Part shown: positions 4,642 to 17,661 of the stretch, piece after piece
How positions within the stretch are numbered: position 1 is the stretch's first letter
How the letters are laid out: each line of letters begins with the position of its first letter
NCBI RefSeq assembly: GCF_030013595.1
Contig: NZ_CP122768.1
Length of the DNA: 64,000 nucleotides
From: Escherichia coli
GTDB taxonomy: Bacteria; Pseudomonadota; Gammaproteobacteria; Enterobacterales; Enterobacteriaceae
Reading direction: 5' to 3' (one strand)
The notes under the pieces: generated by a model
The model's database searches: none
The model's input: only the letters and a program-made list of their open reading frames with translations
Told to the model about the DNA's origin: nothing
Program-made: the position numbers and the translations under genes

Positions 4642-5862
4642 ATGAATAAATATCAGGCAGTGATTATTGGTTTTGGCAAGGCTGGAAAAACATTAGCCGT
4701 CACGCTGGCAAAAGCAGGTTGGCGTGTGGCTCTCATCGAACAATCAAATGCAATGTATGGCGGGACCTGTATTAATATCGGCTGTATCCCAACCAAAACA
4801 TTGGTTCATGACGCACAGCAGCACACAGATTTTGTCCGTGCCATACAGCGTAAAAATGAAGTGGTTAATTTTTTACGTAATAAGAATTTTCATAATCTTG
4901 CGGATATGCCCAATATCGACGTGATCGACGGCCAGGCGGAGTTTATCAATAATCATAGCCTGCGTGTTCATCGGCCTGAGGGAAATCTGGAGATTCATGG
5001 CGAGAAAATTTTTATTAATACCGGTGCACAAACCGTGGTTCCGCCAATTCCTGGAATTACCACCACGCCTGGTGTATATGACAGCACCGGATTACTTAAT
5101 CTAAAAGAATTGCCTGGGCATTTAGGTATTTTGGGCGGCGGATATATTGGCGTTGAGTTCGCCTCTATGTTCGCTAATTTTGGCAGCAAGGTAACCATTT
5201 TAGAAGCAGCTTCGCTGTTTTTGCCTCGGGAAGATCGGGATATTGCTGATAATATCGCGACGATTTTACGCGATCAGGGCGTCGATATTATCCTCAATGC
5301 CCATGTGGAGCGAATCAGTCACCATGAAAATCAAGTGCAAGTGCATAGCGAGCACGCCCAACTGGCGGTGGATGCACTGTTAATAGCTTCCGGTCGTCAA
5401 CCAGCTACCGCTTCGTTACATCCAGAAAATGCCGGTATCGCAGTAAACGAGCGCGGGGCAATTGTCGTTGACAAGCGATTACATACCACCGCAGACAATA
5501 TTTGGGCGATGGGAGATGTTACCGGCGGGCTGCAATTTACTTACATATCACTAGATGATTACCGCATTGTACGTGATGAGTTACTGGGTGAAGGCAAACG
5601 TAGTACTGATGATCGGAAAAATGTGCCTTATTCCGTATTTATGACACCGCCCCTGTCCAGGGTTGGTATGACAGAAGAACAAGCCAGAGAGAGTGGTGCT
5701 GATATTCAGGTGGTGACATTGCCTGTAGCTGCAATTCCGCGCGCCAGAGTGATGAACGATACCCGTGGGGTATTAAAAGCGATTGTTGATAATAAAACCC
5801 AACGTATATTAGGGGCATCACTGCTGTGTGTTGACACGAGAGTATTCAAAACACGCCAATAA
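4642..5862 (+). pseudogene. rclA: rclA (pyridine nucleotide-disulfide oxidoreductase), 5' portion; reading frame leaves native sequence after ...LLCVD (about 5835) and ends in element-derived codons TRVFKTRQ*
   Basis: GFGKAG Rossmann motif, CINIGCIPTK redox-active disulfide; K-12 RclA is 441 aa, here first 398 aa then insertion. Confidence 0.8.
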
Positions 5863-5903
5863 CCTCTTGATTCAATTGAAGTCGAAAATTTTAAGTCAAA
5901 AAT

Positions 5904-5929
5904 CGTATAGCTTAACGTGTAGCTAAAAA
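5904..5929. repeat. Sub-terminal repeat cgtatagctTaacgtgtagctaaaaa (left copy), probable integrase-binding/att-associated site
   Basis: Near-identical copy at 16432-16457 (1 mismatch). Confidence 0.55.
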
Positions 5930-6479
5930 TGTTTGCTGCAAAAGTATACAATTTTAACCGTTATGACTCCCTGTTATCCGTTATCAAGCTGGTGGATGAT
6001 CATGGATAACCCGTTATGGGAATCCCCATATCGGCATCAGGCCCATGCCATAACAAAAACCCCATATTCGTGGGTTTTCTGTGTTGTGGCTATTCTGCCG
6101 TTGCCGTGCTGGTGGATATTTCCGGTATGTGGCTCACCATATCGGCATCACGCCCACCAGCGCGACGCATTTTTTTAATTTCGCGGGTGTAAAAATTTGA
6201 CGGGGCGGGCGGTCCTATAAGCAATGGGGGGTAGGGATTTCGATCCCCCCTCCTGAATGCAATTTTCCGTATGTGGCTGTGCGGCAATCATACTCGTCAC
6301 ATGTTTTTGACAATAAAAGGCCCGACCGTGAGACTCACAAACAAAAAAGTTACGGAGAAACAGGGGATCGGGCTCGGTTGCCGCTAAATCTATTCAATTA
6401 AAAGAAGATGTCAATAGGGAAAACGAAAAAAAACAATGCTGATATTGTCATAATTTGAACAAAACCACTATATGTAGTT

Positions 6480-6710
6480 TTAGTTCATGAGGTTAGTCGC
6501 TACCAGATGCGTCAATAGTTTTTTGCTATTAATAATCCCTCTTTTTCCATCGGGAGCTTTGCACTTGTCACTACCTGGTAACTCCTGGTGGCGTTCCTGT
6601 TGCAGCACAACGGAAACAGGCGCTGAACACCTGTTAATTTTGCTTGCAGGTTGTTTGATTTCGGCAATGCTGCGGATCATCTCCAGCATATCGGCTTCGG
6701 TGATGGTCAT
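6480..6710 (-). CDS. Hypothetical small protein (76 aa) in satellite
   Basis: ORF only; lies just beyond the cos-like repeat block. Confidence 0.25.
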   Translation of the reverse strand: MTITEADMLEMIRSIAEIKQPASKINRCSAPVSVVLQQERHQELPGSDKCKAPDGKRGIINSKKLLTHLVATNLMN

Positions 6711-6718
6711 GATTTACA

Positions 6719-6995
6719 CCTTAGGAAATCTTAGGGGCTGGTTGACACTTTCCGGCTTAAGACCTTAACAAATCTTAACATCGCAGGTTGACACACTTGA
6801 CACTTTTTCGCGAAAAACCTTATCAAACCTTAGCATTTCTAAGCATGGCAACTTGACACTTTTCGCGATTTTTTCGGCTTTTTGACGTGGTAAATCTGGC
6901 GCAAAGCCAGTAACGGCGGGGTTTACAGCGAGGTTGACACTTTTTCGCGTTCAGAGTGTAAAGTGTCAACCTGGCAAGCTGCTCAACTTGACACT
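6719..6995. repeat. Cos/pac-like repeat block: at least 6 direct copies of TTGACAC(TTTT) (6742, 6788, 6797, 6853, 6934, 6988) plus one inverted copy (6963) interleaved with CTTAnnAAAnCTTA repeats
   Basis: Repeats counted directly; adjacent to TerS-like gene. Confidence 0.5.
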
Positions 6996-7003
6996 TTTTG
7001 AGG

Positions 7004-7531
7004 TCATTGATGGCCTGATTTTTCCCACTCAGCCAGGGCGTTTAGTCCGGCTTCACTCCAGTTATCCAGCTCATCGGGACAATCACCTGCAACATAGCAG
7101 AGCTCACAACGCAGCATACGAATTGCCAGCCTGGCATTTTCCCGAAAATCATACTGCTCAAAGTAATATTGCCCAGCATAATCCTCAAGGCAGATAGCAC
7201 CATCATCAAGAAATTGCACTTCACAGCATAGTTCCCCGGCTGCATCCTGTACACGCTGCTGTATGTCATTGTCCGTTACTGGTGCAGGGATTTTACCGTC
7301 TCTGGCCTTAACTGCTTTCCAGAACTCGCCCCACGTCATTTCCAGCGTTCTCTCTGGCCACATTTCAGAAACGGTATCTTTTCCCTGTGCTGGTGGGCTG
7401 TTCCGCTGCTCTGTCGCTTCCACATCGATTTTTTTACCGGACATGACCACTTCGCCTTTCTCGATCCAGTCGTAAACTGTCTGGCGGCTTACGCCTTTGT
7501 GTTTGGCATATTCTGCCTTGCTCATAAACAT
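7004..7531 (-). CDS. Terminase small subunit-like protein (Nu1-type N-terminal HTH); candidate packaging-redirection protein (Rpp-like)
   Basis: N-terminus KAEYAKHKGVSRQTVYDWIEKG resembles lambda Nu1 HTH; no large terminase or capsid gene in element. Confidence 0.55.
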   Translation of the reverse strand: MFMSKAEYAKHKGVSRQTVYDWIEKGEVVMSGKKIDVEATEQRNSPPAQGKDTVSEMWPERTLEMTWGEFWKAVKARDGKIPAPVTDNDIQQRVQDAAGELCCEVQFLDDGAICLEDYAGQYYFEQYDFRENARLAIRMLRCELCYVAGDCPDELDNWSEAGLNALAEWEKSGHQ

Positions 7532-7701
7532 GACACTTCCCCTCAGACTGTATTAATGCGCCGGAAAGCGCGTGTATTTAAATCATCCCAGGAACCGTTG
7601 AGCACCAATTAGTTGCGCGAAGTAATCGGCACCAGCGTTCCGAACAATTTCCAACTTAACGTTCTGATCATTGTTTCCTGCTGCAGGGACAATCCCACGA
7701 T

Positions 7702-8355
7702 TCATAGCCAGCGCCCGGATATTTCTTCCAGTTTTTCCAGAGCTGGCTTGCAGGCCGCATCAATAACTTCACGGACCATTCCGGCGAGCTGTTCTTCTTC
7801 TGTCGGCGTTGTTACTTCCACACCTGATGGTTTCCCGCCCTTATCCCATACGCCCAACGGTACGAGCGCAACGTGATCGATAAGAAATGGCGTACCCTCA
7901 ATGAAAAAATTGTCCTCGCCCATTACATCAGGAACTTCTGCCCCACCGGACGCACCACAAAACACAACCGACGGGCTGGTGGATACCTCCCCCCGTGCTT
8001 TCTGGATGTAATCGATGATTTCCTGCCCGTAAATCCGGCATACGCCCCACACCTCGTCACCGCGAATATACGGCAACATGACGGTGCCAATAATGCGCGA
8101 CCGTTCGCCCACGTCTTCAAGGGTTTTGCTTTCGGGATGGTCGATAATGACGGGTACTCCGGCGCAACGTTCCAGGAACTGCGGATTGAGATAAGTTTGC
8201 GGTGAACGCCAGACAAATTCTTTTTCTTCGGCGCGATAGGCCATTCCGGTTCCTGTGATACGCAGGTTAATCAGCCACATGTTGGAAAACTGATAAGGCG
8301 ACGGTAGCTGACCGTCCCGAATCTGCTTTGCCGCCTCAATTTCTGTTAAAAGCAT
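7702..8355 (-). CDS. Hypothetical protein (217 aa), satellite morphogenesis/packaging region
   Basis: ORF with coding-like composition; no motif recognised. Confidence 0.45.
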   Translation of the reverse strand: MLLTEIEAAKQIRDGQLPSPYQFSNMWLINLRITGTGMAYRAEEKEFVWRSPQTYLNPQFLERCAGVPVIIDHPESKTLEDVGERSRIIGTVMLPYIRGDEVWGVCRIYGQEIIDYIQKARGEVSTSPSVVFCGASGGAEVPDVMGEDNFFIEGTPFLIDHVALVPLGVWDKGGKPSGVEVTTPTEEEQLAGMVREVIDAACKPALEKLEEISGRWL

Positions 8356-8419
8356 AATGTCCCCCGGTTATAAGCAATAAGCCCCACCAAATCCGGCAGG
8401 GCTGAAATCAGCACGTTTT

Positions 8420-9013
8420 TCATGCCCCCGCGAGGCTTGCAACGTTAATTTTAACCAGGCGACGGGGAGGGATTTTGAAAGCACTAAGCCAGTTATTCGG
8501 ATCCCCCTGATATTCAGTAATCCGCCGTCCGGCTTCATCCATTCTTACGGTTTTACGCAAATAGCCCGGCGTATTTTCCACAGCCCACTGAACACTGTCT
8601 TTTGCAGCCTGGTAAATCTGATCTTCCAGCACCGCCAGCGTTGCAGAATCTGAAACGGAACGAATATCCACATCACTGAATTTTTTAGCCAGCTTCTGTG
8701 CACCAATTAATGCACGCTTGCGGTAATCCATCGACTTTTCACCAGCAAACGGGGCTGGAGCGCGACGGCCCATATTGCTGTATGCGGAATCCGCTTTAGC
8801 CTGGGCTTCTGCCAGTGAGGATTCATCTTCGACTGACGCGACGATGTTTTTATTCGCGTCATCCTCGTCCGCTTTTGTGAAATCCTGTGCGGGGATCGCA
8901 TTCAGAATTTCGATAATCTCCTGCGGAGTGCTGCCCTGCGACTCTGACAGAGCGTTAACCACCTCCATCAGTTTTAATCGCAAATCTTCTTTGCTTGCTG
9001 GCATTTTTACCAC
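8420..9013 (-). CDS. Hypothetical protein (197 aa), acidic and Ala/Glu-rich, scaffold-like
   Basis: ORF; composition resembles phage scaffolding proteins (inference only). Confidence 0.4.
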   Translation of the reverse strand: MVKMPASKEDLRLKLMEVVNALSESQGSTPQEIIEILNAIPAQDFTKADEDDANKNIVASVEDESSLAEAQAKADSAYSNMGRRAPAPFAGEKSMDYRKRALIGAQKLAKKFSDVDIRSVSDSATLAVLEDQIYQAAKDSVQWAVENTPGYLRKTVRMDEAGRRITEYQGDPNNWLSAFKIPPRRLVKINVASLAGA

Positions 9014-9043
9014 CTCTCTTTTTTCACCAAAAAATCACGACCA

Positions 9044-9241
9044 TCAGGCCGGACGTTCTACGGGATAAAGCGCCCGCTGCATTAAACGCCGGGCGACCTC
9101 ATGAATGCTCGGAGCAATCCCCAGCGGAGAATTGCGGCGTTCCTCGTCCTGGATGCGCTGTAATGCTTCAATCTGATCACGAGCGAGTAAAACGGGTTTC
9201 ACGCTGGCTTTTCTCATAGTCATATCTCCTGAACAAAACAA
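9044..9241 (-). CDS. Hypothetical small protein (59-65 aa)
   Basis: ORF between PerC-like gene and the 197-aa gene. Confidence 0.3.
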   Translation of the reverse strand: MFCSGDMTMRKASVKPVLLARDQIEALQRIQDEERRNSPLGIAPSIHEVARRLMQRALYPVERPA

Positions 9242-9418
9242 TGATTATGATTGCACAAACTGAAATAACGATCTACATCATTGCAATTTATGAAACAATA
9301 ACGCATGATGATCGCGTTCTTCCCATTGACTTCAATCACCTGAAAAACAAAGCCCGCAACACTTCTGGCTGCGGGTTTTTTACTGGCACAAAAAAGCCGG
9401 GAAAAATCCCGGCCTCCG

Positions 9419-9706
9419 TCACTGACTGCAATTTTTCGATCCAGGGTATTTCCTGAATGCCTTACCATTGGGCTGATGTAATCCCATCCCGGCATGTGCC
9501 CGGCTGATGGTTTCGCGCATTTCCCCGAAATTATCCTGCCTTGCTGGTGGGCGTGCTGCCTTGCGGATACATTCCGCGCGACGTTTTGCCGCCTGTTCCC
9601 GTGCCTTGTCATCATTCGCCAGCATGATGACCTCAGCCCACCGCGCCGCCGCTCTCCGGTACAGACCACGCGCTTCCAGTGCTTCCGCTTTGCTGTCGTG
9701 AATCAT
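9419..9706 (-). CDS. PerC-family-like transcriptional activator (95 aa)
   Basis: Small basic protein with N-terminus MIHDSKAEALEARGLYRRAAARWAEV typical of prophage PerC homologs (from memory). Confidence 0.45.
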   Translation of the reverse strand: MIHDSKAEALEARGLYRRAAARWAEVIMLANDDKAREQAAKRRAECIRKAARPPARQDNFGEMRETISRAHAGMGLHQPNGKAFRKYPGSKNCSQ

Positions 9707-10245
9707 GCGCCTGTTTTCTCCTTTGCTGCCCGGCGCTGACGTTTGCGCTTCTCATTCAGCGCCACCAGCCGCGTTTCTGCGTCCTGTTGTTCCTGTGGTG
9801 TCACCTCGCCGCACGGCTGGCCTTTCAGGTCGTAGCGTACCCCACCAGCCATTAAGGCGCGGTAATAGCGCGGACACTGCGCATAAGATGCCAGCGTCGC
9901 ACGCAATGCCCCTGGACCGAATGCCAGCCCCCTGACGGCGAGATCCTGCATCAGGTCGTCGAATATCCCCACCTTAAGCGGCTTCGGTGCTTCCCGGCTG
10001 AATAATTCAGGCCACAACTCAGTGAGGCGGTTAACGCGCCTGCGGTTTTTGCGCTGGCGTTTGGTCATATGCCGCCACGGTGTCGCCCCTGTGGGCTTCT
10101 GCTGCGCTTTCTGGTTACCGGGCATCACTTTATGCGCCGATGTGGTTTTATCCTGCTCCTGCGCCGCCTGCGTCGTTTTCTGCGGCGTGCCGTAAATGCC
10201 TTTCGGTTTTCTGTTAATGGTCAGCTTAGTCATGCTTTGCCCCAT
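9703..10245 (-). CDS. ProQ/FinO-domain RNA-binding protein (180 aa)
   Basis: PKPLKVGIFDDL ... YAQCPRYYRAL ... RYDLKGQPCGEVT matches ProQ/FinO N-terminal domain pattern; K/R-rich tail. Confidence 0.6.
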   Translation of the reverse strand: MGQSMTKLTINRKPKGIYGTPQKTTQAAQEQDKTTSAHKVMPGNQKAQQKPTGATPWRHMTKRQRKNRRRVNRLTELWPELFSREAPKPLKVGIFDDLMQDLAVRGLAFGPGALRATLASYAQCPRYYRALMAGGVRYDLKGQPCGEVTPQEQQDAETRLVALNEKRKRQRRAAKEKTGA

Positions 10246-10392
10246 CGTTTTTACTGGTTGCTACGTTGCCCAACGGCACTGACACAACATTCTGTTTTCA
10301 TTTTTAACATTCCTGATTTTTTAATTCCTCACCTGCTGCACAGTGAAAATTTATGAAGTTAATAACAATATGATTTTAAATGTATTTTTAAG

Positions 10393-10713
10393 TACTCACT
10401 TTTTAATCCTTATATATACGCAAAAGTGAGGTAAATAGTTAAGTTTTAGTTAATATCTTGCATGGTGTGTTTTTTAACCTACCTGTTATTTTTATTACCT
10501 CATTTCTATTAACTCACCATTCCTCACTTTTGTTCCTCACTTTTTATTATTCTTGTTCTGCTCCTCAGTCGTTTTCTTTATTGTTGTAATCTGTTGTTTT
10601 GCAATGTGTTTTTAACTCCTCACTTTTTGACCTATATACAGGTGAGAAAGTGAGGAGTGGCGTTGATTTTTTGTTAAATTACCCGCCATCCTCACTTTTG
10701 CTCCTCACTTTTT
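10393..10713. repeat. Iteron-type replication origin: at least 7 copies of CCTCACTTTT (direct and inverted) in AT-rich DNA immediately 3' of rep
   Basis: Copies at about 10395, 10421 (inv), 10522, 10534, 10617, 10645 (inv), 10691, 10703. Confidence 0.6.
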
Positions 10714-12127
10714 ACAGTGGGCGCACATAATCACCGTCAATAGCGATTACGCCGTCGCTTTCCAGCTTGTACAGCCAGCGCCGGAAGTTTTTCATTTCAT
10801 ACCCCAGCTTTTTCATATCATCGCGGAGAAGGGCGATAGTGCACGCCTCCCCGTGTGCTGTTCGCGTTCTGATGCACTGCCATAGCGCAGCGTGATTTTC
10901 CGTCTTGTTCCCGGCCTCCTCGATGCGTTCCAGTTCAACAGGTGGGCGCGGCTTATCCACAACCACCAGCGACGTGATTAACTCCCCGTCAGTGTCGGTA
11001 AAAAGCTCCACCACGCGTAAATCATATGCAGCCTCTTTCAGTTCCTCCGCGTCCTTCATTTTGGTGCAGGAGATAACCAGGGCTTCACTGTCCGCACCTT
11101 CACGGCGAATACGGTATTCAGCGTCCAGAGATGCACGAAATGCACTGGAACCACGCGCCCCTTTTGTTTCATCCTTGCCGGAATGGTGAACCACCAGTAC
11201 CGTGGCCCCTGTGCGTCGTTTCAGTTCGTCACATCCACGGATAAACGCCCCCATATCCCGCGCGTCATTTTCATCATTACCGCCAAAGCAACGCGCCAGC
11301 GTATCCAGAATAATCATGCGTACCGGTTTACCCGTTTCCCGTTCAACCTGACGGGAAGCGATGACCATTTCATCAACATCAAGCGGGACCGCCGGAAAAA
11401 TCGGGCGGTTTACCAGGTACAGATTTTTCACCCGTTCATCATTAACGATTTCCCATGCTTTGATACGACGAGGAACACCGATCCCGCCCTCACCAACGAC
11501 ATACATAACCGCACCATGTACAACCCTGCGACCTCCCCAGTGGCGACCAGTGGCAACATGACACGCCCAGGAACACGCGAGGAACGATTTATAGGAACCG
11601 CTCGCGCCGTATGTGCTGCACAACGAATTAGCCGGAATCACGCCCTTAACGACATAATCAAGCTGTGTGTCGTATCCTGCAGATCCAATACTCATTGGTA
11701 GCGTGGTTTTTCGCTGGCTGTATTGCTCGTCAGTAAGTATTTCCCCGCGCTCTGCCTGTTCGCGGATCCGTTGCAGGTAGTCGTGCCAGTTCTCCAGCTT
11801 CTGGCTGTGCATTCCCTCAGGGTAATAATTCGCATCCCGTACACCTGCCGCCGCCAGTTTTTGCCCGATGGCATTAATATTTGACGGCTTGATGTGGCCT
11901 GCCTTGTACAGCCGGACACAATAGCGACCATCGTCGATAATTTTCAGGTCTGCCAGTTCGTCAAGCTGGCTGTCTCCCAGCCATACAGGCGGAACATTGT
12001 CGCCAGCAAGTCGCCCGTCCTGTTCCTGCCATTGTTTCGCGTGCGCCCAGGCATCACTACCCGCAAAAATAATGACTTCGGTCATTTTGTCGTGTGGCTG
12101 TTTTTTTAAGTTCGGTGCCAGTTTCAT
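10712..12127 (-). CDS. RepA-like replicative helicase / AAA_25-type ATPase (471 aa)
   Basis: Walker A GASGSYKS, Walker B MIILDTL, VVHHSGK; adjacent iterons. Confidence 0.7.
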   Translation of the reverse strand: MKLAPNLKKQPHDKMTEVIIFAGSDAWAHAKQWQEQDGRLAGDNVPPVWLGDSQLDELADLKIIDDGRYCVRLYKAGHIKPSNINAIGQKLAAAGVRDANYYPEGMHSQKLENWHDYLQRIREQAERGEILTDEQYSQRKTTLPMSIGSAGYDTQLDYVVKGVIPANSLCSTYGASGSYKSFLACSWACHVATGRHWGGRRVVHGAVMYVVGEGGIGVPRRIKAWEIVNDERVKNLYLVNRPIFPAVPLDVDEMVIASRQVERETGKPVRMIILDTLARCFGGNDENDARDMGAFIRGCDELKRRTGATVLVVHHSGKDETKGARGSSAFRASLDAEYRIRREGADSEALVISCTKMKDAEELKEAAYDLRVVELFTDTDGELITSLVVVDKPRPPVELERIEEAGNKTENHAALWQCIRTRTAHGEACTIALLRDDMKKLGYEMKNFRRWLYKLESDGVIAIDGDYVRPL

Positions 12128-12423
12128 TTTGTGCCCCTGAATGCGTTAATCATGTTTTTCATTTTCTGAATATTTGCCCGTGCCTTTGCGTTGCTGGTGG
12201 GCTGTTTGCGTGGTGTGGCCTGTATCAGTGAAAAATCACGCCGGAACTGATAAACAGGCATCACGCAGTCGTAGCTGTACCCATCACGGCGGTAAGTAAC
12301 GCACCGTCCGGCAATACTTTTAATCGTTACCGTGCCGCCGTAGTTATCCCGGAAAATATCGCCGGGGCGGATTTCAGGCCGAGGGAGACCACTGGCAGTA
12401 AAGCCAGAATTTTTCTTTTTCAT
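12124..12423 (-). CDS. Hypothetical protein (99 aa), translationally coupled to rep (4-bp overlap)
   Basis: ORF; operon packing. Confidence 0.45.
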   Translation of the reverse strand: MKKKNSGFTASGLPRPEIRPGDIFRDNYGGTVTIKSIAGRCVTYRRDGYSYDCVMPVYQFRRDFSLIQATPRKQPTSNAKARANIQKMKNMINAFRGTK

Positions 12424-12427
12424 GGTT

Positions 12428-12628
12428 TTATTTTCCTGTCAGCAGTTCCGGTTTTATTTCCGCACGAATACAGAGTTCAGAAAAAAATTCAGGAGAACCA
12501 ACAATCTCATTACTTTTCAGTCGGCATTGTGATTTCACTTTCCCTTTATCCAGGTAAACCAGTATGCGTCCGGTGAAATCATCTGGCACACTCAGGGTAA
12601 TTGTCATTGTTGCTTGCTGATTATCCAT
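12428..12628 (-). CDS. Hypothetical protein (66 aa) with one FTG-x-LV repeat unit
   Basis: Shares about 50-aa repeat with upstream 121-aa protein. Confidence 0.4.
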   Translation of the reverse strand: MDNQQATMTITLSVPDDFTGRILVYLDKGKVKSQCRLKSNEIVGSPEFFSELCIRAEIKPELLTGK

Positions 12629-12986
12629 GATTCACCCCCTGAATAACCTGATAACCGCAACTGGTCAGCAATTCGATAAATTCCGGCAGTGTTCCGAAAC
12701 AGCAATCATCTCGCAGCCGTTCTCGGGATACTTCAACGCCGTTTTCGTAGTGACTCACCATGCGTCCGGTAAAATGCAGATCATCATCGTGATGGCTCGT
12801 TAACGGCTTAATCAGTCGCGCACGTTCTGCCAGCTCCAGCAATGCTTCAACGCTTCCGGCAATTGCACCATCCGGCAGGTGATAATTACTTGCCACGCGT
12901 CCATTCTCCACGTTAACCAGTAGCTGCCCGGTGAATTTCTCATCAAACTGAATGCTGTTAAGGTCAGAAATTGACAGGTTAATCAT
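12621..12986 (-). CDS. Hypothetical protein (121 aa) with two internal FTG-x-LV repeat units
   Basis: Internal duplication visible in translation; 8-bp overlaps with neighbours. Confidence 0.45.
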   Translation of the reverse strand: MINLSISDLNSIQFDEKFTGQLLVNVENGRVASNYHLPDGAIAGSVEALLELAERARLIKPLTSHHDDDLHFTGRMVSHYENGVEVSRERLRDDCCFGTLPEFIELLTSCGYQVIQGVNHG

Positions 12987-13344
12987 GGCGTACCTCCTGG
13001 CGAATACGGGCAGCGAATACCATCACGCAGCCATCAGGAGATTGCTGGCGTGCTTCCTGTTCGCTGGTGGCCACGATGTGAATCACGCGCGGTTGTGCGG
13101 TGCTCAGGGCGATAAAACGCCAGATAAAATTGTTTTCGCATTTCTGAATAAACAGCGTGTTTTCTTCGCGCCCTTTCCATGTTGCCGAGATATAGCCCAT
13201 GCCATTGAGCATCTCGCAGGCATCAACCAGCGTATCAGCGGCTACGTGTACAGTGTTTTTACCGTCAGCTATGCAATCACGGTGCACCGCCAGGAAGGTG
13301 TATATAAATTTAGGGTGAGTTTGGGTATGCTGTGTTCCAGCCAT
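12979..13344 (-). CDS. Hypothetical protein (121 aa); first gene of alpA-distal operon
   Basis: ATG at 13344 with AGGT RBS; the 478-aa ORF-track extension to 14415 is judged spurious. Confidence 0.45.
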   Translation of the reverse strand: MAGTQHTQTHPKFIYTFLAVHRDCIADGKNTVHVAADTLVDACEMLNGMGYISATWKGREENTLFIQKCENNFIWRFIALSTAQPRVIHIVATSEQEARQQSPDGCVMVFAARIRQEVRHD

Positions 13345-13545
13345 AATCGTTACCTCATTTAACGGTTTGGTTAGAAGCCCCGTTACTGCTCCAACAGTGC
13401 GGGGCTTCGTCGTTTCAATTGCTGAATTGCATGTATCAGCCCTTGTGGTATTCAGATTACATTTTGGTGAATACCATTTCAAGTCTTTTTTGGTATTCAC
13501 TTTTGTATTACACTGCATCCCGTTATTAATCGGAGGTGCAAACAT

Positions 13546-13849
13546 GTCCACGAGTTCTGTTAACAATAAGTCACAGCAACTGAATGCCAGATTTCCACAT
13601 GAAGTAGTGAGTGGCATTGAGGCATCCCTACAGCCAGGGGAAACTAAAGCGAATTTTATAGTTACGGCTGTACGCGGTGAGATCGCCCGCCGCCAGGCAG
13701 AAGGAAGCGGAGAAAACCCCCTGGTTTCTTCGCTCGATGCGCTGGCGCAGGTGGAAAAAATCGGAGTCAAAGCTGCCGAGGAGATCGGGCAGCTCGTCAC
13801 CGTCGCACGTGAAGAACTCCAGCGCCGCAAGGCCAAAGAATCAGAATAA
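13546..13849 (+). CDS. Putative ribbon-helix-helix-like DNA-binding protein (101 aa), divergent from the rep operon
   Basis: GGAGG RBS; inverted repeats TGGTATTCA / TGAATACCA at about 13445-13500 upstream. Confidence 0.4.
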
Positions 13850-13906
13850 TAACTATCATCGCCGTGGTGTGAGGAACTCCGGCGCATTGCTTTACAGGTA
13901 CACAGA

Positions 13907-14107
13907 ATGACCAACAAAGAATCAACCAAAACACCATCACCAACCCGGAAGAGACGTCGCAAAAATATGACGCACGAGCATGAATCAGACAGATTCGCGC
14001 CGTGTGCGTTTGTCCTTGAGACGTTCCTTAAAGAGTACAGGCGCACAAAATTAGGGCCACATACCTGGAAAACATCGCGACATAGCGATATTAAAGAGCA
14101 GGAATAG
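13907..14107 (+). CDS. Hypothetical small basic protein (66 aa)
   Basis: ORF downstream of RHH-like gene; R/K-rich N-terminus. Confidence 0.3.
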   Translation: MTNKESTKTPSPTRKRRRKNMTHEHESDRFAPCAFVLETFLKEYRRTKLGPHTWKTSRHSDIKEQE

Positions 14108-14240
14108 CCCACCAGCAAGTCAGCATATTCACCATAATGACCCTCGGTTAAACCTAGAGTCATTGGTGCAAACCTGACACATTGCCCACCAGCCAGCAAA
14201 TCGCTATGATATTTGGGCTTATGTTTAGTGTTTTCCCATT

Positions 14241-14268
14241 GGCGACCGCCCCCGGTCGCCTTTGTTTT
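14241..14268 (+). terminator. Rho-independent terminator (GGCGACCG-cccc-CGGTCGCC + T-run)
   Basis: Perfect 8-bp stem followed by TTTGTTTTG. Confidence 0.55.
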
Positions 14269-14321
14269 GCCCGTTATCCGGCAATTGTGGCGCTTCGCCA
14301 CACGGTTGATATAATTCCCCT

Positions 14322-14392
14322 GCACTGATCCATTTTTTTCGCAGCAGGTTAATTGTTCGCAAGGGCGCTCCGGCAACGGGGCGCTTTTTGTT
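14322..14392 (+). ncRNA. Candidate ~70-nt small RNA: extended -10 (TGaTATAAT, 14307-14315) to terminator hairpin 14361-14389 with GNRA-like loop and T-run
   Basis: Promoter-like element and terminator ~70 nt apart in a 310-bp non-coding gap, convergent with alpA 3' end. Confidence 0.3.
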
Positions 14393-14419
14393 ATGTTCAT
14401 CGCGTTACGCCTCACACCA

Positions 14420-14626
14420 TTACGCAGCCGTTCCGCGCGCTTCTTCCTCGCGCTCTTTCAGCCAGGCCAGCACTTCATCTTCATACCAGCCAACACGACG
14501 CAGACCGATTTTGAAGCCTTTCGGGAATTTTCCGGCGTTGATCATGTCCTGTAGCGAACTGTCTGCCTTGATGCGCAGAATATTTTTTACTTCCTGACGG
14601 GTAAGTATTTTTCTGATTGTTTCCAC
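14420..14626 (-). CDS. alpA: AlpA-family transcriptional regulator (68 aa)
   Basis: Typical AlpA/Vis-like size and HTH (LRIKADSSLQDMINAGKFPKGFKIG) next to integrase. Confidence 0.75.
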   Translation of the reverse strand: METIRKILTRQEVKNILRIKADSSLQDMINAGKFPKGFKIGLRRVGWYEDEVLAWLKEREEEARGTAA

Positions 14627-14690
14627 TATGTTTTACCTCGTTAATCCGGCGTATTCCGGTGATAAATACGGTAAAACAGGGCAGGGCGGG

Positions 14691-14732
14691 AAAAACAGTA
14701 CCCACCGTTTTAAAACGGTACCCACTGTTTTT
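14691..14732. promoter_or_regulatory. Tandem operator-like sites AAAAC(A/G)GTACCCAC(C/T)GTTTT x2 upstream of alpA
   Basis: Two 20-bp near-identical units in the alpA promoter region. Confidence 0.4.
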
Positions 14733-14795
14733 ATCTCATTGATTACGCTTTTCTTTCTGCAAAAAAATAGCGACCGCAAAGGGCCGCTATTGTGA

Positions 14796-15026
14796 TTACC
14801 GTTTCCACTTCTTAGGTCGCCCACCGCATTTAAGGCTGGTGGGCCTCAGCACCTTGTCGATGCTTTCAGCCAGATTTTTCGATGCACCACGCGAGCGCAA
14901 AAAACTGACTACCTCGTGTTTTGTGGGGGCTGTTGATTTGTCTTCCGGATCGTATGTTGACCAGAATTCACGATTTGCCATTAACGCCAGTTGCAGCCCT
15001 TCGCCGTAGGCGGTGGTATTTTGCAT
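14796..15026 (-). CDS. Hypothetical small protein (76 aa) between int and alpA
   Basis: ORF only. Confidence 0.25.
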   Translation of the reverse strand: MQNTTAYGEGLQLALMANREFWSTYDPEDKSTAPTKHEVVSFLRSRGASKNLAESIDKVLRPTSLKCGGRPKKWKR

Positions 15027-15124
15027 AATAGAATTTTCATATACTCCGGCCTTGTCGTTAAATTTGTGGCAATTATACGATGGTTTGGCATGGTTTGCAT
15101 CGCTTTTACTGGCTTTTTGTACAG

Positions 15125-16366
15125 CTACACGGCACGGATACCCCTTTTACCGCTGGCTATGGTCACTCCGGTAGCTGCAGCCTCCACAAATTCACCCCAC
15201 CAGCGCATAAGCACCACGCGCTTTTCCAGGTAGTTACTTCGGTTATATGCCCGCCTTACCTCGTTCGTGTCCACGTGTGCGAGTGCGGCCTCGATTACGT
15301 CCGGTTCGAATCCTTCCTCGTTCGCTGCTGTGCTGAATATGGCGCGTAATCCGTGAGACACCAGCACACCAGCGTAACCCATCCGGCGTAATGCAGCGTT
15401 AGCGGTCTGGCTGCTCATTGGCAGCATCGGATTTTTAAGGCTGGGAAAAACGTGTTCCCTGTGTGCGCTGATTGGCTTCATGGTTTCCAGTACAGCCATA
15501 GCCTGACCGCAAAGGGGGATCACATGGTCACGGCGCATCTTCATGCGTCCGGCTGGAATCGTCCAGGTTTCGGCATCGAGATCTATTTCTTCCCAGCGTG
15601 CGGCGGCTGCTTCGGCTGGGCGTGCTACGGTCAGCAGTTGCCACTCAATCAGCAATCTGGTTTGCCGTTCTATGCTGGCGACCGATAAATCGTGCATTAG
15701 CTGCGGTAGCTGTTCCGGTCGGATGGTTGGCATGTGCTTTTTGGTGGGTGAGGGGAATGCCTTGCGGACGTTCGCGGCGGTGTTGATGTCAATCAGCCCA
15801 CTGTTGGCGGCAAAATCCATCACTTCATTGATGCGCTGCAAAACGCGTTTCAGAGTTTCCAGGTTGCCGCGTGCTTTAATGGGGGTGAGTATCTCAACAA
15901 AGCGGCGAGCGGTGAGGGTATCTATTGGCGTGTTTCCGATGTACGGGAATACGTATTTTTCCAGGGATCGCCAGATATCCTTAATCGTGTTGTAAGCCAG
16001 ATTCTGGCCTTTTTTCATCTCGTACCAGTCCGAGGCAACTTTTTCGAACGTGTTGCCCTTTTTCCGGCTCTCTGCTTCACGTTTCCGGCGTTCATGGTCC
16101 TGTGGGTCAGTTCCCTTTGCTATTAGTGACCTGTATTCATTCCGTCGCTCTCTGGCATCAGACAGGGAAACATCATTCAGCGATCCAAGGCTGATAATAG
16201 TCCGTTTTTTATCTGCCGGGCGGTAGTACGTAAAACGCCATATTTTTGATCCGGAGGGCTTCACCAGAAGAAATAATCCTCCGCCATCCTGCAGGGTGTA
16301 TTCCTTTTCCCCTGGTCGTGCGTTTTTGATCTCCGTAATGGTTAGTGGGGTGGTTTTTCGTGCCAT
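15125..16366 (-). CDS. Tyrosine site-specific integrase (P4-type, 413 aa)
   Basis: N-terminal arm-binding-like region and C-terminal catalytic domain (HGLRAIFST ... R..Y); adjacent repeat cluster. Confidence 0.85.
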   Translation of the reverse strand: MARKTTPLTITEIKNARPGEKEYTLQDGGGLFLLVKPSGSKIWRFTYYRPADKKRTIISLGSLNDVSLSDARERRNEYRSLIAKGTDPQDHERRKREAESRKKGNTFEKVASDWYEMKKGQNLAYNTIKDIWRSLEKYVFPYIGNTPIDTLTARRFVEILTPIKARGNLETLKRVLQRINEVMDFAANSGLIDINTAANVRKAFPSPTKKHMPTIRPEQLPQLMHDLSVASIERQTRLLIEWQLLTVARPAEAAAARWEEIDLDAETWTIPAGRMKMRRDHVIPLCGQAMAVLETMKPISAHREHVFPSLKNPMLPMSSQTANAALRRMGYAGVLVSHGLRAIFSTAANEEGFEPDVIEAALAHVDTNEVRRAYNRSNYLEKRVVLMRWWGEFVEAAATGVTIASGKRGIRAV

Positions 16367-16380
16367 GTTTTTTTACCCAT

Positions 16381-16457
16381 CGGTAGCTATATGCCTGGTC
16401 GTAGCTATACGGCTTTAGCTACACGCTGGACCGTATAGCTAAACGTGTAGCTAAAAA
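16381..16457. repeat. Integrase-proximal repeat cluster (GTAGCTATAC / CGTATAGCTA / CGTGTAGCTA inverted and direct units) including right copy of sub-terminal repeat (16432-16457)
   Basis: Matches left copy at 5904-5929. Confidence 0.55.
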
Positions 16458-16509
16458 ATCCGGTTATAACCCTATCTTACCGATTCAATCCGGCGACTGA
16501 AAACAACAA

Positions 16510-16543
16510 AAAAGCCCGTTAATCAGTAAATTAACGGGCTTTC
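16510..16543 (-). terminator. Hairpin AGCCCGTTAAT-loop-ATTAACGGGCT with T-run on minus strand
   Basis: 11-bp stem; on the minus strand followed by TTTTTTGTTGTTTT. Confidence 0.4.
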
Positions 16544-16555
16544 AATAGGTTACCG

Positions 16556-16710
16556 ATGCTGTCCGATATTCAATTTGGTCGGCACGAGATGATCAATATA
16601 GTGAAAATGGTGATGGATGCCGGGCTGCCTTATAGCATATTACGCGATCAGATATTTACTCATCCGTCGATGAGCGAATCACTCAATGATCTATTTTCAT
16701 TAGTCAAATA
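16556..16710 (+). pseudogene. rclA: rclA 3' remnant encoding ...HEMINIVKMVMDAGLPYSILRDQIFTHPSMSESLNDLFSLVK*
   Basis: Matches remembered RclA C-terminal dimerisation region; in-frame ATG at 16556 is element-derived. Confidence 0.7.
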
Positions 16711-16819
16711 AACTCAAAATCAGACGCCAGAACAAATATTCTGGCGTCTCAGAGAAAAGAATCTTATTAATTCCCTGTTACTTTATAACTTCTTAATCAC
16801 TTCATTGATGGTATTTTAT

Positions 16820-17056
16820 ATGTTTAAAAAACCTGTTTTATTTGCAACACTATTATCTGGCGTTATGGCATTTTCCACCAATGCAGATGATAAAATAATT
16901 CTGAAACATATCAGCGTCTCGTCAGTATCAGCATCACCGACAGTTCTTGAGGATGCCATTGCTGATATGGCCAGAAAATATAATGCTTCATCCTGGAAAG
17001 TTACATCGATGCGAATTGATAATAATTCAACCGCAACAGCAGTATTGTATAAATAA
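16820..17056 (+). CDS. rclB: Small periplasmic DUF1471 protein RclB (78 aa)
   Basis: Signal peptide then YdgH/BhsA-like domain; position between rclA and rclC. Confidence 0.8.
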   Translation: MFKKPVLFATLLSGVMAFSTNADDKIILKHISVSSVSASPTVLEDAIADMARKYNASSWKVTSMRIDNNSTATAVLYK

Positions 17057-17058
17057 GG

Positions 17059-17661
17059 ATGTTCACAATGGAAAAATACCTGCACCTGTTAAGTCAGGGA
17101 GATAAAATTGGCCTGACATTGATTCGTCTGAGTATTGCGATTGTTTTTATGTGGATTGGGTTATTAAAGTTTGTCCCTTACGAGGCAGACAGCATTACAC
17201 CATTCGTCGCAAACAGTCCACTAATGTCGTTCTTTTATGAACACCCGGAAGACTATAAACAGTATCTGACTCACGAAGGCGAATACAAACCAGAAGCAAG
17301 GGCATGGCAAACGGCCAATAATACCTATGGTTTTTCCAACGGTCTTGGCGTCGTGGAGGTGATTATTGCTCTGCTGGTTTTGGCTAATCCTGTCAATCGC
17401 TGGTTAGGTTTATTGGGAGGGCTGATGGCATTTACCACACCGTTGGTAACACTCTCATTTTTAATCACCACCCCGGAGGCATGGGTACCCGCATTGGGTG
17501 ACGCTCATCATGGTTTCCCTTATTTATCCGGTGCTGGTCGCCTGGTATTGAAAGATACTCTGATGCTGGCAGGTGCTGTCATGATAATGGCAGATTCGGC
17601 GCGGGACATTCTTAAACAACGCAGTAATGAATCCAGTTCAACGTTAAAAACTGAATATTGA
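17059..17661 (+). CDS. rclC: DoxX-like inner membrane protein RclC (about 197-200 aa)
   Basis: Multiple hydrophobic helices; operon position. Confidence 0.8.
   Translation: MFTMEKYLHLLSQGDKIGLTLIRLSIAIVFMWIGLLKFVPYEADSITPFVANSPLMSFFYEHPEDYKQYLTHEGEYKPEARAWQTANNTYGFSNGLGVVEVIIALLVLANPVNRWLGLLGGLMAFTTPLVTLSFLITTPEAWVPALGDAHHGFPYLSGAGRLVLKDTLMLAGAVMIMADSARDILKQRSNESSSTLKTEY

Follow-up and report, generated by a model that had tools for sequence, protein, structure and literature searches.

In phage-inducible chromosomal islands (PICIs), the replication origin (ori) occupies the DNA immediately 3' of the initiator gene, with sets of iterons to either side of an AT-rich stretch (Fillol-Salom et al. 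2018, ISME J, PMC6092414). The rep-ori of the Escherichia coli island EcCICFT073 maintained a plasmid, and maintenance fell on deletion of either rep or ori (PMC6092414). The Rep proteins of Staphylococcus aureus pathogenicity islands (SaPIs) are self-loading AAA+ helicases of superfamily 3 (SF3) or SF6 with 3'-5' translocation, and they bind, through a C-terminal winged helix, the 6-12 iterons that lie directly downstream of rep (PMC9371898). We analyzed a 64-kb stretch of E. coli contig NZ_CP122768.1 (64,000 nucleotides, hereafter the window), which contains an island of 10.55 kb (5904-16457) bounded by 26-nt direct repeats, and we propose, with a probability of roughly 0.85, that positions ~10297-10712 are the replication origin of this 10.5-kb element, which is a Gram-negative PICI.

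The genes of the island lie on one strand in the order int, AlpA-like, Icd-like, DUF4222 and rep, followed by ProQ/FinO, PerC, DUF2213 and TerS-like genes; tail and lysis genes are absent, and size and gene order are as in Gram-negative PICIs. Like EcCICFT073 and other Gram-negative PICIs, the island shows the unidirectional int-alpA-...-DUF4222-rep-ori-perC order over ~10 kb, with the ori immediately 3' of rep and AT-rich DNA lying between iteron sets. The catalogued PICI EcCI11128 encodes a Rep of the same family as that of the window (“helicase RepA family”, WP_000833625, identical to the Rep of homologous locus L003), so the Rep type of the window is already in the published PICI catalogue. 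EcCI11128 and L003 combine a histidine at Rep residue 447 (H447) with CCCAC iterons, whereas the window combines an asparagine (N447) with CTCAC. EcCICFT073 has a D5_N/DUF5906/Pox_D5 (SF3-like) primase-type Rep and GTCTACC-like iterons, in contrast to the RecA-fold AAA_25 engine and CCTCACTTTT iterons of the window. Compared with both islands, the window has a long-form origin (~415 bp) with a second palindrome.

The iteron array and its predicted initiator

A pattern search for CCTCACTTTT allowing at most one mismatch yielded 10 matches in the window, 8 of which fall inside 10394-10712. These comprise 6 exact units and 2 with one mismatch, with 6 on the + strand and 2 on the - strand:

10394-10403, + strand: one-mismatch unit ACTCACTTTT
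10422-10431, - strand: exact CCTCACTTTT unit
10522-10531, + strand: exact CCTCACTTTT unit
10535-10544, + strand: exact CCTCACTTTT unit
10618-10627, + strand: exact CCTCACTTTT unit
10646-10655, - strand: one-mismatch unit CCTCACTTTC
10690-10699, + strand: exact CCTCACTTTT unit
10703-10712, + strand: exact CCTCACTTTT unit
10712-12127, - strand: rep, encoding a 471-aa predicted initiator-helicase (open reading frame and Pfam)

Reading the sequence added five more degenerate units with a CTCA core (10327-10333, 10498-10505, 10513-10519, 10563-10568 and 10640-10646). The initial annotation had described at least seven units, mixed direct and inverted, in very AT-rich DNA directly 3' of a RepA-like gene, and the counts agree with it on each point. 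Six units are direct and two inverted. The G+C content is 0.21-0.38 over 10300-10700 (31% for the repeat-bearing DNA overall), far below that of both flanking genes (0.53 for rep, 0.59 for the gene downstream). The array lies exactly 3' of rep, since its last unit (10703-10712) overlaps the rep stop codon (10712-10714, - strand) by one base. The least stable 30-bp stretches of the region have dG values of -28.7 to -30.3, close to the extreme of the window (-28.2), whose mean is -41.1 +/- 3.8; few stretches in the window, if any, are less stable.

On the + strand the origin region has low complexity and is rich in T, as would suit repeats that arose by chance in AT-rich intergenic DNA and have no sequence-specific function. 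None of 100 shuffles of the whole window attained 10 CCTCACTTTT matches, however, and 2000 dinucleotide-preserving shuffles of 10246-10715 (470 bp) gave a mean of 0.10 +/- 0.32 matches and a maximum of 3, against the 8 observed. The CTCAC core reaches a density of 23.4 per kb in the origin region versus 1.7 per kb window-wide. The layout is moreover kept, and the changes in the repeats are concerted and compensatory, across ~165 loci (see below). A chance origin of the repeats was rejected on the shuffle statistics together with the covariation with Rep, and we regard it as exceedingly improbable.

Along the rep strand, the stop codon is followed by a proximal pair, a spacer, palindrome B, a spacer, a distal set, a spacer, palindrome A and an AT-rich end, delimited as follows:

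10690-10712, + strand: proximal tandem iteron pair with a 13-nt period, abutting the rep stop codon (repeat search; position kept in E. coli-type homologues)
10618-10655, both strands: palindrome B, head-to-head iterons 10618-10627 (+) and 10646-10655 (-) with a half unit at 10640-10646 (-)
10545-10617: T-rich spacer of 73 nt, G+C 0.30, between palindrome B and the distal set (composition)
10498-10544, + strand: distal tandem set, exact units 10522-10531 and 10535-10544, degenerate units 10498-10505 (CCTCATTT) and 10513-10519 (ACTCACC)
10432-10497: AT-rich spacer of 66 nt, G+C 0.23, candidate unwinding region (composition, duplex stability)
10394-10431: palindrome A, second head-to-head pair 10394-10403 (+) and 10422-10431 (-), with centre TATATATAC at 10411-10419 (repeat search)
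10297-10393: outer AT-rich end of the origin, ~100 nt, with an outlying CCTCACC unit at 10327-10333 (composition, sequence read)

The AT-rich DNA is enclosed by iteron sets, with the proximal set plus palindrome B to one side of it and the distal set plus palindrome A to the other, and the spacers between them have a G+C content of 0.22-0.30. The proximal pair is separated from palindrome B by 34 nt. Palindrome B has a TATATAC centre (10633-10639) and forms an inverted repeat with 22-nt arms that are 86% complementary, and the 73-nt spacer that follows holds a single degenerate unit (CCTCAG, 10563-10568). The distal set and the proximal pair form a 26-nt direct repeat (96% identical). Of the 30-bp stretches in the region, the least stable is contained in 10334-10393, where G+C is 0.22, and the next two in rank begin at 10431 and 10486. 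Palindrome A is an extra module found only in the long (~415 bp) origin form and common to homologous loci L004 and L104. The outer AT-rich stretch is conserved in L004, where an extra gene of 257 aa begins after it, between the ori and the ProQ gene; 10246-10296 in the window is a remnant of the start of this gene. A pattern search of 10246-10715 found no DnaA box (TTWTNCACA or a relaxed form), IHF consensus, GATC or 13-mer, an absence that fits a self-contained initiator. An Rfam search of 5000-17500 returned only sub-threshold chance matches, including two miRNA models at 10617-10714 that merely reflect the palindrome.

Rep is predicted to consist of an N-terminal module (residues 1-131), a RecA-fold AAA_25 core (~140-390) and a C-terminal winged helix (~405-471). 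The Pfam AAA_25 family matches residues 152-320 with an E-value of 2e-44 (152 bits against a cut-off of 27), RefSeq names the protein “helicase RepA family”, and its sole sequence match in the PDB is the RSF1010 RepA helicase (1g8y). The AlphaFold2 (AF2) model, built from a 49-sequence alignment, has a predicted local distance difference test score (pLDDT) of 78.8 and shows the N-terminal part as an alpha/beta module; the best Foldseek matches of the core are KaiC, Rad51 and RadA. Walker A residues K180/S181 and Walker B residue D275 are invariant in 49 homologues. An NCBIfam search added nothing, a protein search of phages gave only helicase and primase relatives of the core domain at <60% identity, and a DNA search of a phage collection gave one irrelevant match only.

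Two features at the C-terminus bear on origin recognition:

10715-10915, - strand: coding sequence of the predicted winged-helix origin-recognition domain, residues 405-471 (AF2, Foldseek)
10787-10789, - strand: AAC codon of residue N447, which lies at the N-terminus of the predicted recognition helix (sequence read)

This domain has the secondary structure H-H-H-beta-beta, with a recognition helix H3 at residues 445-457 (MKNFRRWLYKLES), and was modelled alone with a pLDDT of 88. Nearly all of its top Foldseek matches in the PDB contain winged-helix domains, with ORC2 (1w5s; template modelling score 0.77, root-mean-square deviation 1.7 A), DtxR, LexA, Rpa2-WH and MCM-WH among its neighbours.

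Rep residues 1-131 (11735-12127), for which Pfam gives no match, are 62-66% identical to the N-termini of the EcCICFT073 (62%, Pri-Rep) and Sakai Sp7/EcCIEDL933 Reps, D5/primase-type proteins that are otherwise unrelated to the Rep of the window. Whatever the Rep allele type, DUF4222 is conserved upstream of it in these islands. From these sequence comparisons the rep genes look mosaic, with DUF4222 and the N-terminal module shared and the engine, the C-terminal domain and the ori exchanged behind them.

The initial annotation had called the locus a classic arrangement for RepA-binding iterons. In a classic plasmid iteron origin, a Rep_3 RepA monomer would bind iterons of 17-22 bp, opening would be aided by DnaA and copy number would be controlled by handcuffing, and the AT-rich DNA next to this gene, which is annotated “RepA”, does hold direct repeats. 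The Rep_3 domain was not found in Rep, however, for which Pfam gives AAA_25 only, with a RecA fold; the units are 10 nt long with a 13-nt period and include inverted pairs; and no DnaA box occurs near an array that lies 3' of rep and not upstream of it. “Classic RepA” is therefore a misnomer for an AAA_25 helicase, and the Rep_3 plasmid model, refuted on the protein family, has in our view hardly any chance of being correct. The wider claim of a Rep-bound iteron origin of the satellite holds up on the PICI context, the published layout and the homologues. The arrangement is of the SaPI/PICI type, with 10-nt units 3' of rep and no DnaA box.

Covariation of Rep with its iterons

We compared the origin with those of 6 E. 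coli elements, 80 loci from one genome per species (Enterobacterales and beyond) and 80 IMG/VR loci. The layout is kept in ~165 homologous loci, with tandem units at the stop codon, a head-to-head pair around TATA, an AT-rich spacer and distal tandem units, and was seen in E. coli, Xenorhabdus, Photorhabdus, Pectobacterium, Serratia, Kosakonia, Morganella, Klebsiella and others. Of 134 distinct origins, 110 contain a head-to-head pair centred on TATA with a ~26-nt gap, and these cover all four specificity classes. An absence of the repeats from homologous elements would have spoken against the initial annotation; they were found in nearly all of the ~165 loci, with a core that covaries with a Rep residue.

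The repeat core varies between elements, and within each of them nearly all copies share one core, either CTCAC, CCCAC, CCCCCAC or CCGCAC. A conserved F-x-R-W motif lies near the C-terminus of Rep, and the two residues in front of it predict the core: KN is paired with CTCAC (26/26 genome loci and 32/32 IMG/VR loci), KH with CCCAC (8/10 genome loci and 39/39 IMG/VR loci), KK with CCCCCAY (31/34) and KS with CCGCAC (5/5). A Klebsiella record of the KS class that was examined later also carries GCCGCAC iterons. This specificity, linking residue 447 and its neighbour to the core in at least 160 loci, is statistical and not biochemical.

Among E. coli-type Reps, residue 447 alone (N or H) predicts the iteron type in 58 of 58 distinct proteins. 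The mutual information of column 447 is 0.992, which equals the entropy of the iteron type, and the next-best column reaches 0.30. N/H447 changes at least 11-18 times on neighbour-joining trees, and Reps only 3-7 residues apart can have opposite iteron types. Other variable residues of the C-terminal domain occur in all combinations with N and H; residue 447 is specifically implicated because every other residue of this domain is uncoupled from the iteron type. We lean slightly towards a rule, drawn from these comparisons, by which residue 447 would set the base 5' of CAC (T for N, C for H or K, G for S), with at least 11 switches that would each have converted a whole array of ~8-12 iterons and with mosaic origins as surviving intermediates. 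Three IMG/VR loci with N447 (L098, L105 and L108) have such mosaic origins, the proximal set and palindrome being CTCAC and the distal set a mix of CTCAC and CCCAC. The origin of L099, whose H447 Rep is 3 residues from that of L098, retains about three iterons, a collapse apparently due to deletion between its two tandem sets, proximal and distal.

If true, the rule would amount to a simple, testable and possibly re-programmable code for Rep-ori specificity, and it would show the same origin logic coupled to a further superfamily, SF4, beyond the SF3/SF6 engines of SaPIs and the D5-type engine of EcCICFT073. No description of a winged-helix/iteron code in Gram-negative PICI Reps was found in the searchable literature, and a literature search with the iteron strings gave unrelated primer matches only; as far as the searchable literature shows, the residue-447 rule is undescribed. 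A diversification of Rep types that avoids clashes between co-resident islands was considered and rejected, as several genomes carry 2-3 islands of the same type.

The comparison of homologous loci also bears on two other functions that the array might serve. It could act as a set of operators through which Rep or another regulator controls transcription of the downstream ProQ/FinO-PerC-morphogenesis genes, and not replication. The array fills the whole intergenic region before the next gene (9703-10245), the distal iterons of short-form elements abut the start codon of the next gene, and plasmid initiators that autoregulate via their own iterons are well known. A promoter scan of 10150-10800, however, found no sigma-70-like promoter on either strand, and the same layout is found ahead of quite unlike genes, namely ProQ, SSB together with a small hypothetical gene, or capsid modules. 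The array covaries with the C-terminal domain of the helicase itself, and its position 3' of rep, its AT-rich core and its opposed sites are the published ori signature; we consider a purely regulatory role unlikely. The only terminator-like hairpin found by a terminator scan of 10150-10800 is on the wrong strand, within the ProQ gene.

The array might also be a packaging (pac/cos) site bound by the small terminase of the island. Short repeats within AT-rich DNA are a frequent recognition target of small terminase subunits, and the island does encode a TerS-like protein (7004-7531), but the same array is found in islands with unrelated packaging modules or none annotated, it covaries with Rep and not with TerS, and the three TTGACACTTTTT repeats at 6770-7003 beside the TerS-like gene are a better pac candidate. 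We give a packaging role very little credence.

An origin of the same type occurs in a record deposited as a plasmid, CP018459.1 (locus L171), the 16,971-bp circular K. pneumoniae pKp_Goe_795-4. This PICI-like element of the capsid-forming sort carries int together with genes for a DNA-binding protein, Rep, capsid, adaptor and terminase, and is probably not a plasmid but an episomal satellite. It combines a KS-class Rep with GCCGCAC iterons in the same layout, and this Rep-ori is its only recognisable replication module, which fits autonomous maintenance by this replicon type alone.

Proposed initiation and comparison with known replicons

The proposal that the array is the origin of the island builds on direct observation of the repeats and their statistics, the layout in ~165 relatives, the covariation, the fold predictions and the conservation of ATPase motifs. 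In the mechanism that follows, the physical binding of Rep, melting, self-loading, a need for host priming and the induction timing are inferred, with the steps of binding, positioning and loading drawn from the analogy with SaPI Reps (PMC9371898) and from the anatomy of the origin. After induction, the unidirectional operon of the island would express Rep, whose C-terminal winged helix would recognise the 10-nt iterons CCTCACTTTT, where N447, at the beginning of the recognition helix, would read the T that comes just ahead of CAC. The tandem sets and the head-to-head TATA pairs, with AT-rich spacers between them, would assemble opposed Rep oligomers flanking easily melted DNA, and on the strands so opened the RecA-fold core (SF4, similar to RSF1010 RepA and T7 gp4) would self-load as a ring helicase. 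Replication would then be completed by the primase and polymerase of the host, supplying island DNA for packaging.

Several points weigh against this reading. The literature search found no experiment on this type of Rep, and the two characterised E. coli PICIs, EcCICFT073 and EcCIEDL933/Sp7, use D5/primase-type Reps and different iterons. Binding of the iterons by the winged helix is a prediction drawn from covariation and a modelled fold, and the Foldseek E-values of this domain (>=0.16) are not significant alone, which we attribute to its small size. The covariation could in principle come from joint inheritance of the C-terminal domain and the ori by recombination, without direct contact. 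The Rep of the window lacks the Zn-ribbon/Toprim primase carried by homologues of other genera: the Xenorhabdus/Pectobacterium proteins of L008 (1424-3526) and L038 (1619-3682), ~690-700 aa long, have Zn_Ribbon_Prim and Toprim_3 domains before AAA_25, a gp4-like primase-helicase architecture that keeps both the C-terminal winged helix and the iteron layout of the window. Four to six loci have no array 3' of rep, including L065/L067 and L068/L070 (two KH, two KK), in which the origin may lie elsewhere or the elements may have decayed. The iterons could additionally be used in transcriptional control.

The SaPI origins are a close functional parallel. SaPI1, SaPI5 and SaPIbov1 of S. aureus likewise combine initiator and helicase in one protein, with a C-terminal winged helix for short iterons, and SaPI origins likewise have an AT-rich centre, oppositely pointing iterons on two sides and allelic Rep-ori specificity. 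Unlike SaPI Reps, the Rep of the window has a RecA fold and is SF4-like; there is no detectable sequence relationship between them, and the host phyla differ.

The ATPase core family, AAA_25, is shared with RSF1010 RepA (1g8y). RSF1010 RepA and the T7 gp4 class move 5'-3', and RSF1010 RepA is devoid of an origin-binding domain, the iterons there being bound by a separate protein, RepC. Compared with RSF1010 RepA and T7 gp4, the Rep of the window adds a predicted C-terminal winged helix and is without any primase domain.

Rep_3 plasmids (pPS10 RepA, F RepE, P1 RepA, R6K pi) resemble the window in having initiator sites beside an AT-rich unwinding region, winged-helix recognition and allelic initiator specificity. 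In contrast to these plasmids, the window has no Rep_3 domain and no DnaA box, its units are 10 nt long (theirs ~17-22 bp), its array lies 3' of the gene and includes head-to-head pairs, and the initiator is itself the predicted helicase.

Papillomavirus E1 and SV40 large T antigen provide a functional analogy, with inverted short sites flanking an AT-rich/TA centre and a hexameric helicase that carries an origin-binding domain and assembles itself into two opposed rings. They differ from the Rep of the window as SF3 AAA+ proteins with another origin-binding fold, and no homology is implied.

The origin is an ordinary member of the published PICI kind and leaves the general picture of PICI biology unchanged; what is unusual is the clear match of one protein residue to one base of the repeat. 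For a routinely annotated island, the analysis yields a functional map of 415 bp of origin and of the 67 Rep residues that probably read them. The N447/H447 versus T/C rule poses a one-mutation question about the specificity of the initiator and might provide satellite replicons that are orthogonal, and the head-to-head sites ~26 nt apart across a TATA centre hint at where two helicase rings would load.

Genes, repeats and insertion site of the island

The remaining features of the island are as follows:

5904-5929, + strand: left bounding repeat, 26 nt, CGTATAGCTTAACGTGTAGCTAAAAA, putative attachment site (att) (repeat search)
7004-7531, - strand: TerS-like gene, 175 aa, whose N-terminus matches phrog_57 (terminase small subunit) and HTH_17
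9419-9706: PerC-family activator gene, after the ProQ/FinO gene
9703-10245: ProQ/FinO-family RNA-chaperone-like gene, directly after the origin
12124-12423, - strand: DUF4222 gene (PF13973, E-value 2.7e-24), overlapping the rep start by 4 nt
14420-14626, - strand: AlpA-like excisionase/regulator gene (phrog_66 and phrog_2790, “excisionase and transcriptional regulator”)
15125-16366, - strand: tyrosine integrase (Pfam Phage_integrase, Phage_int_M, Arm-DNA-bind_3)
16432-16457, + strand: right bounding repeat, adjoining int (repeat search)

The counterpart of the AlpA-like gene in a near-identical island is annotated as a helix-turn-helix regulator. Directly 3' of the TerS-like gene, the segment 6770-7003 carries three copies of TTGACACTTTTT(CGCG) within 39-nt repeats, which may be the pac/TerS recognition site of the island.

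The bounding repeats are 96% identical and lie 10,528 nt apart. A tRNA search found no tRNA near the island, and the published att core of the yejM site, TTTGTAGTTATACG, is absent from the window; the bounding 26-nt repeat is related to it. The right flank (from 16583) matches the rclC/fdeC chromosomal region. An island of ETEC6335 with a 100%-identical rep-ori, which shows a 58-bp offset from the window between rep and int, sits at yejM-tRNA-Pro; closely related islands therefore occupy different sites, that of the window being at rclC/fdeC.

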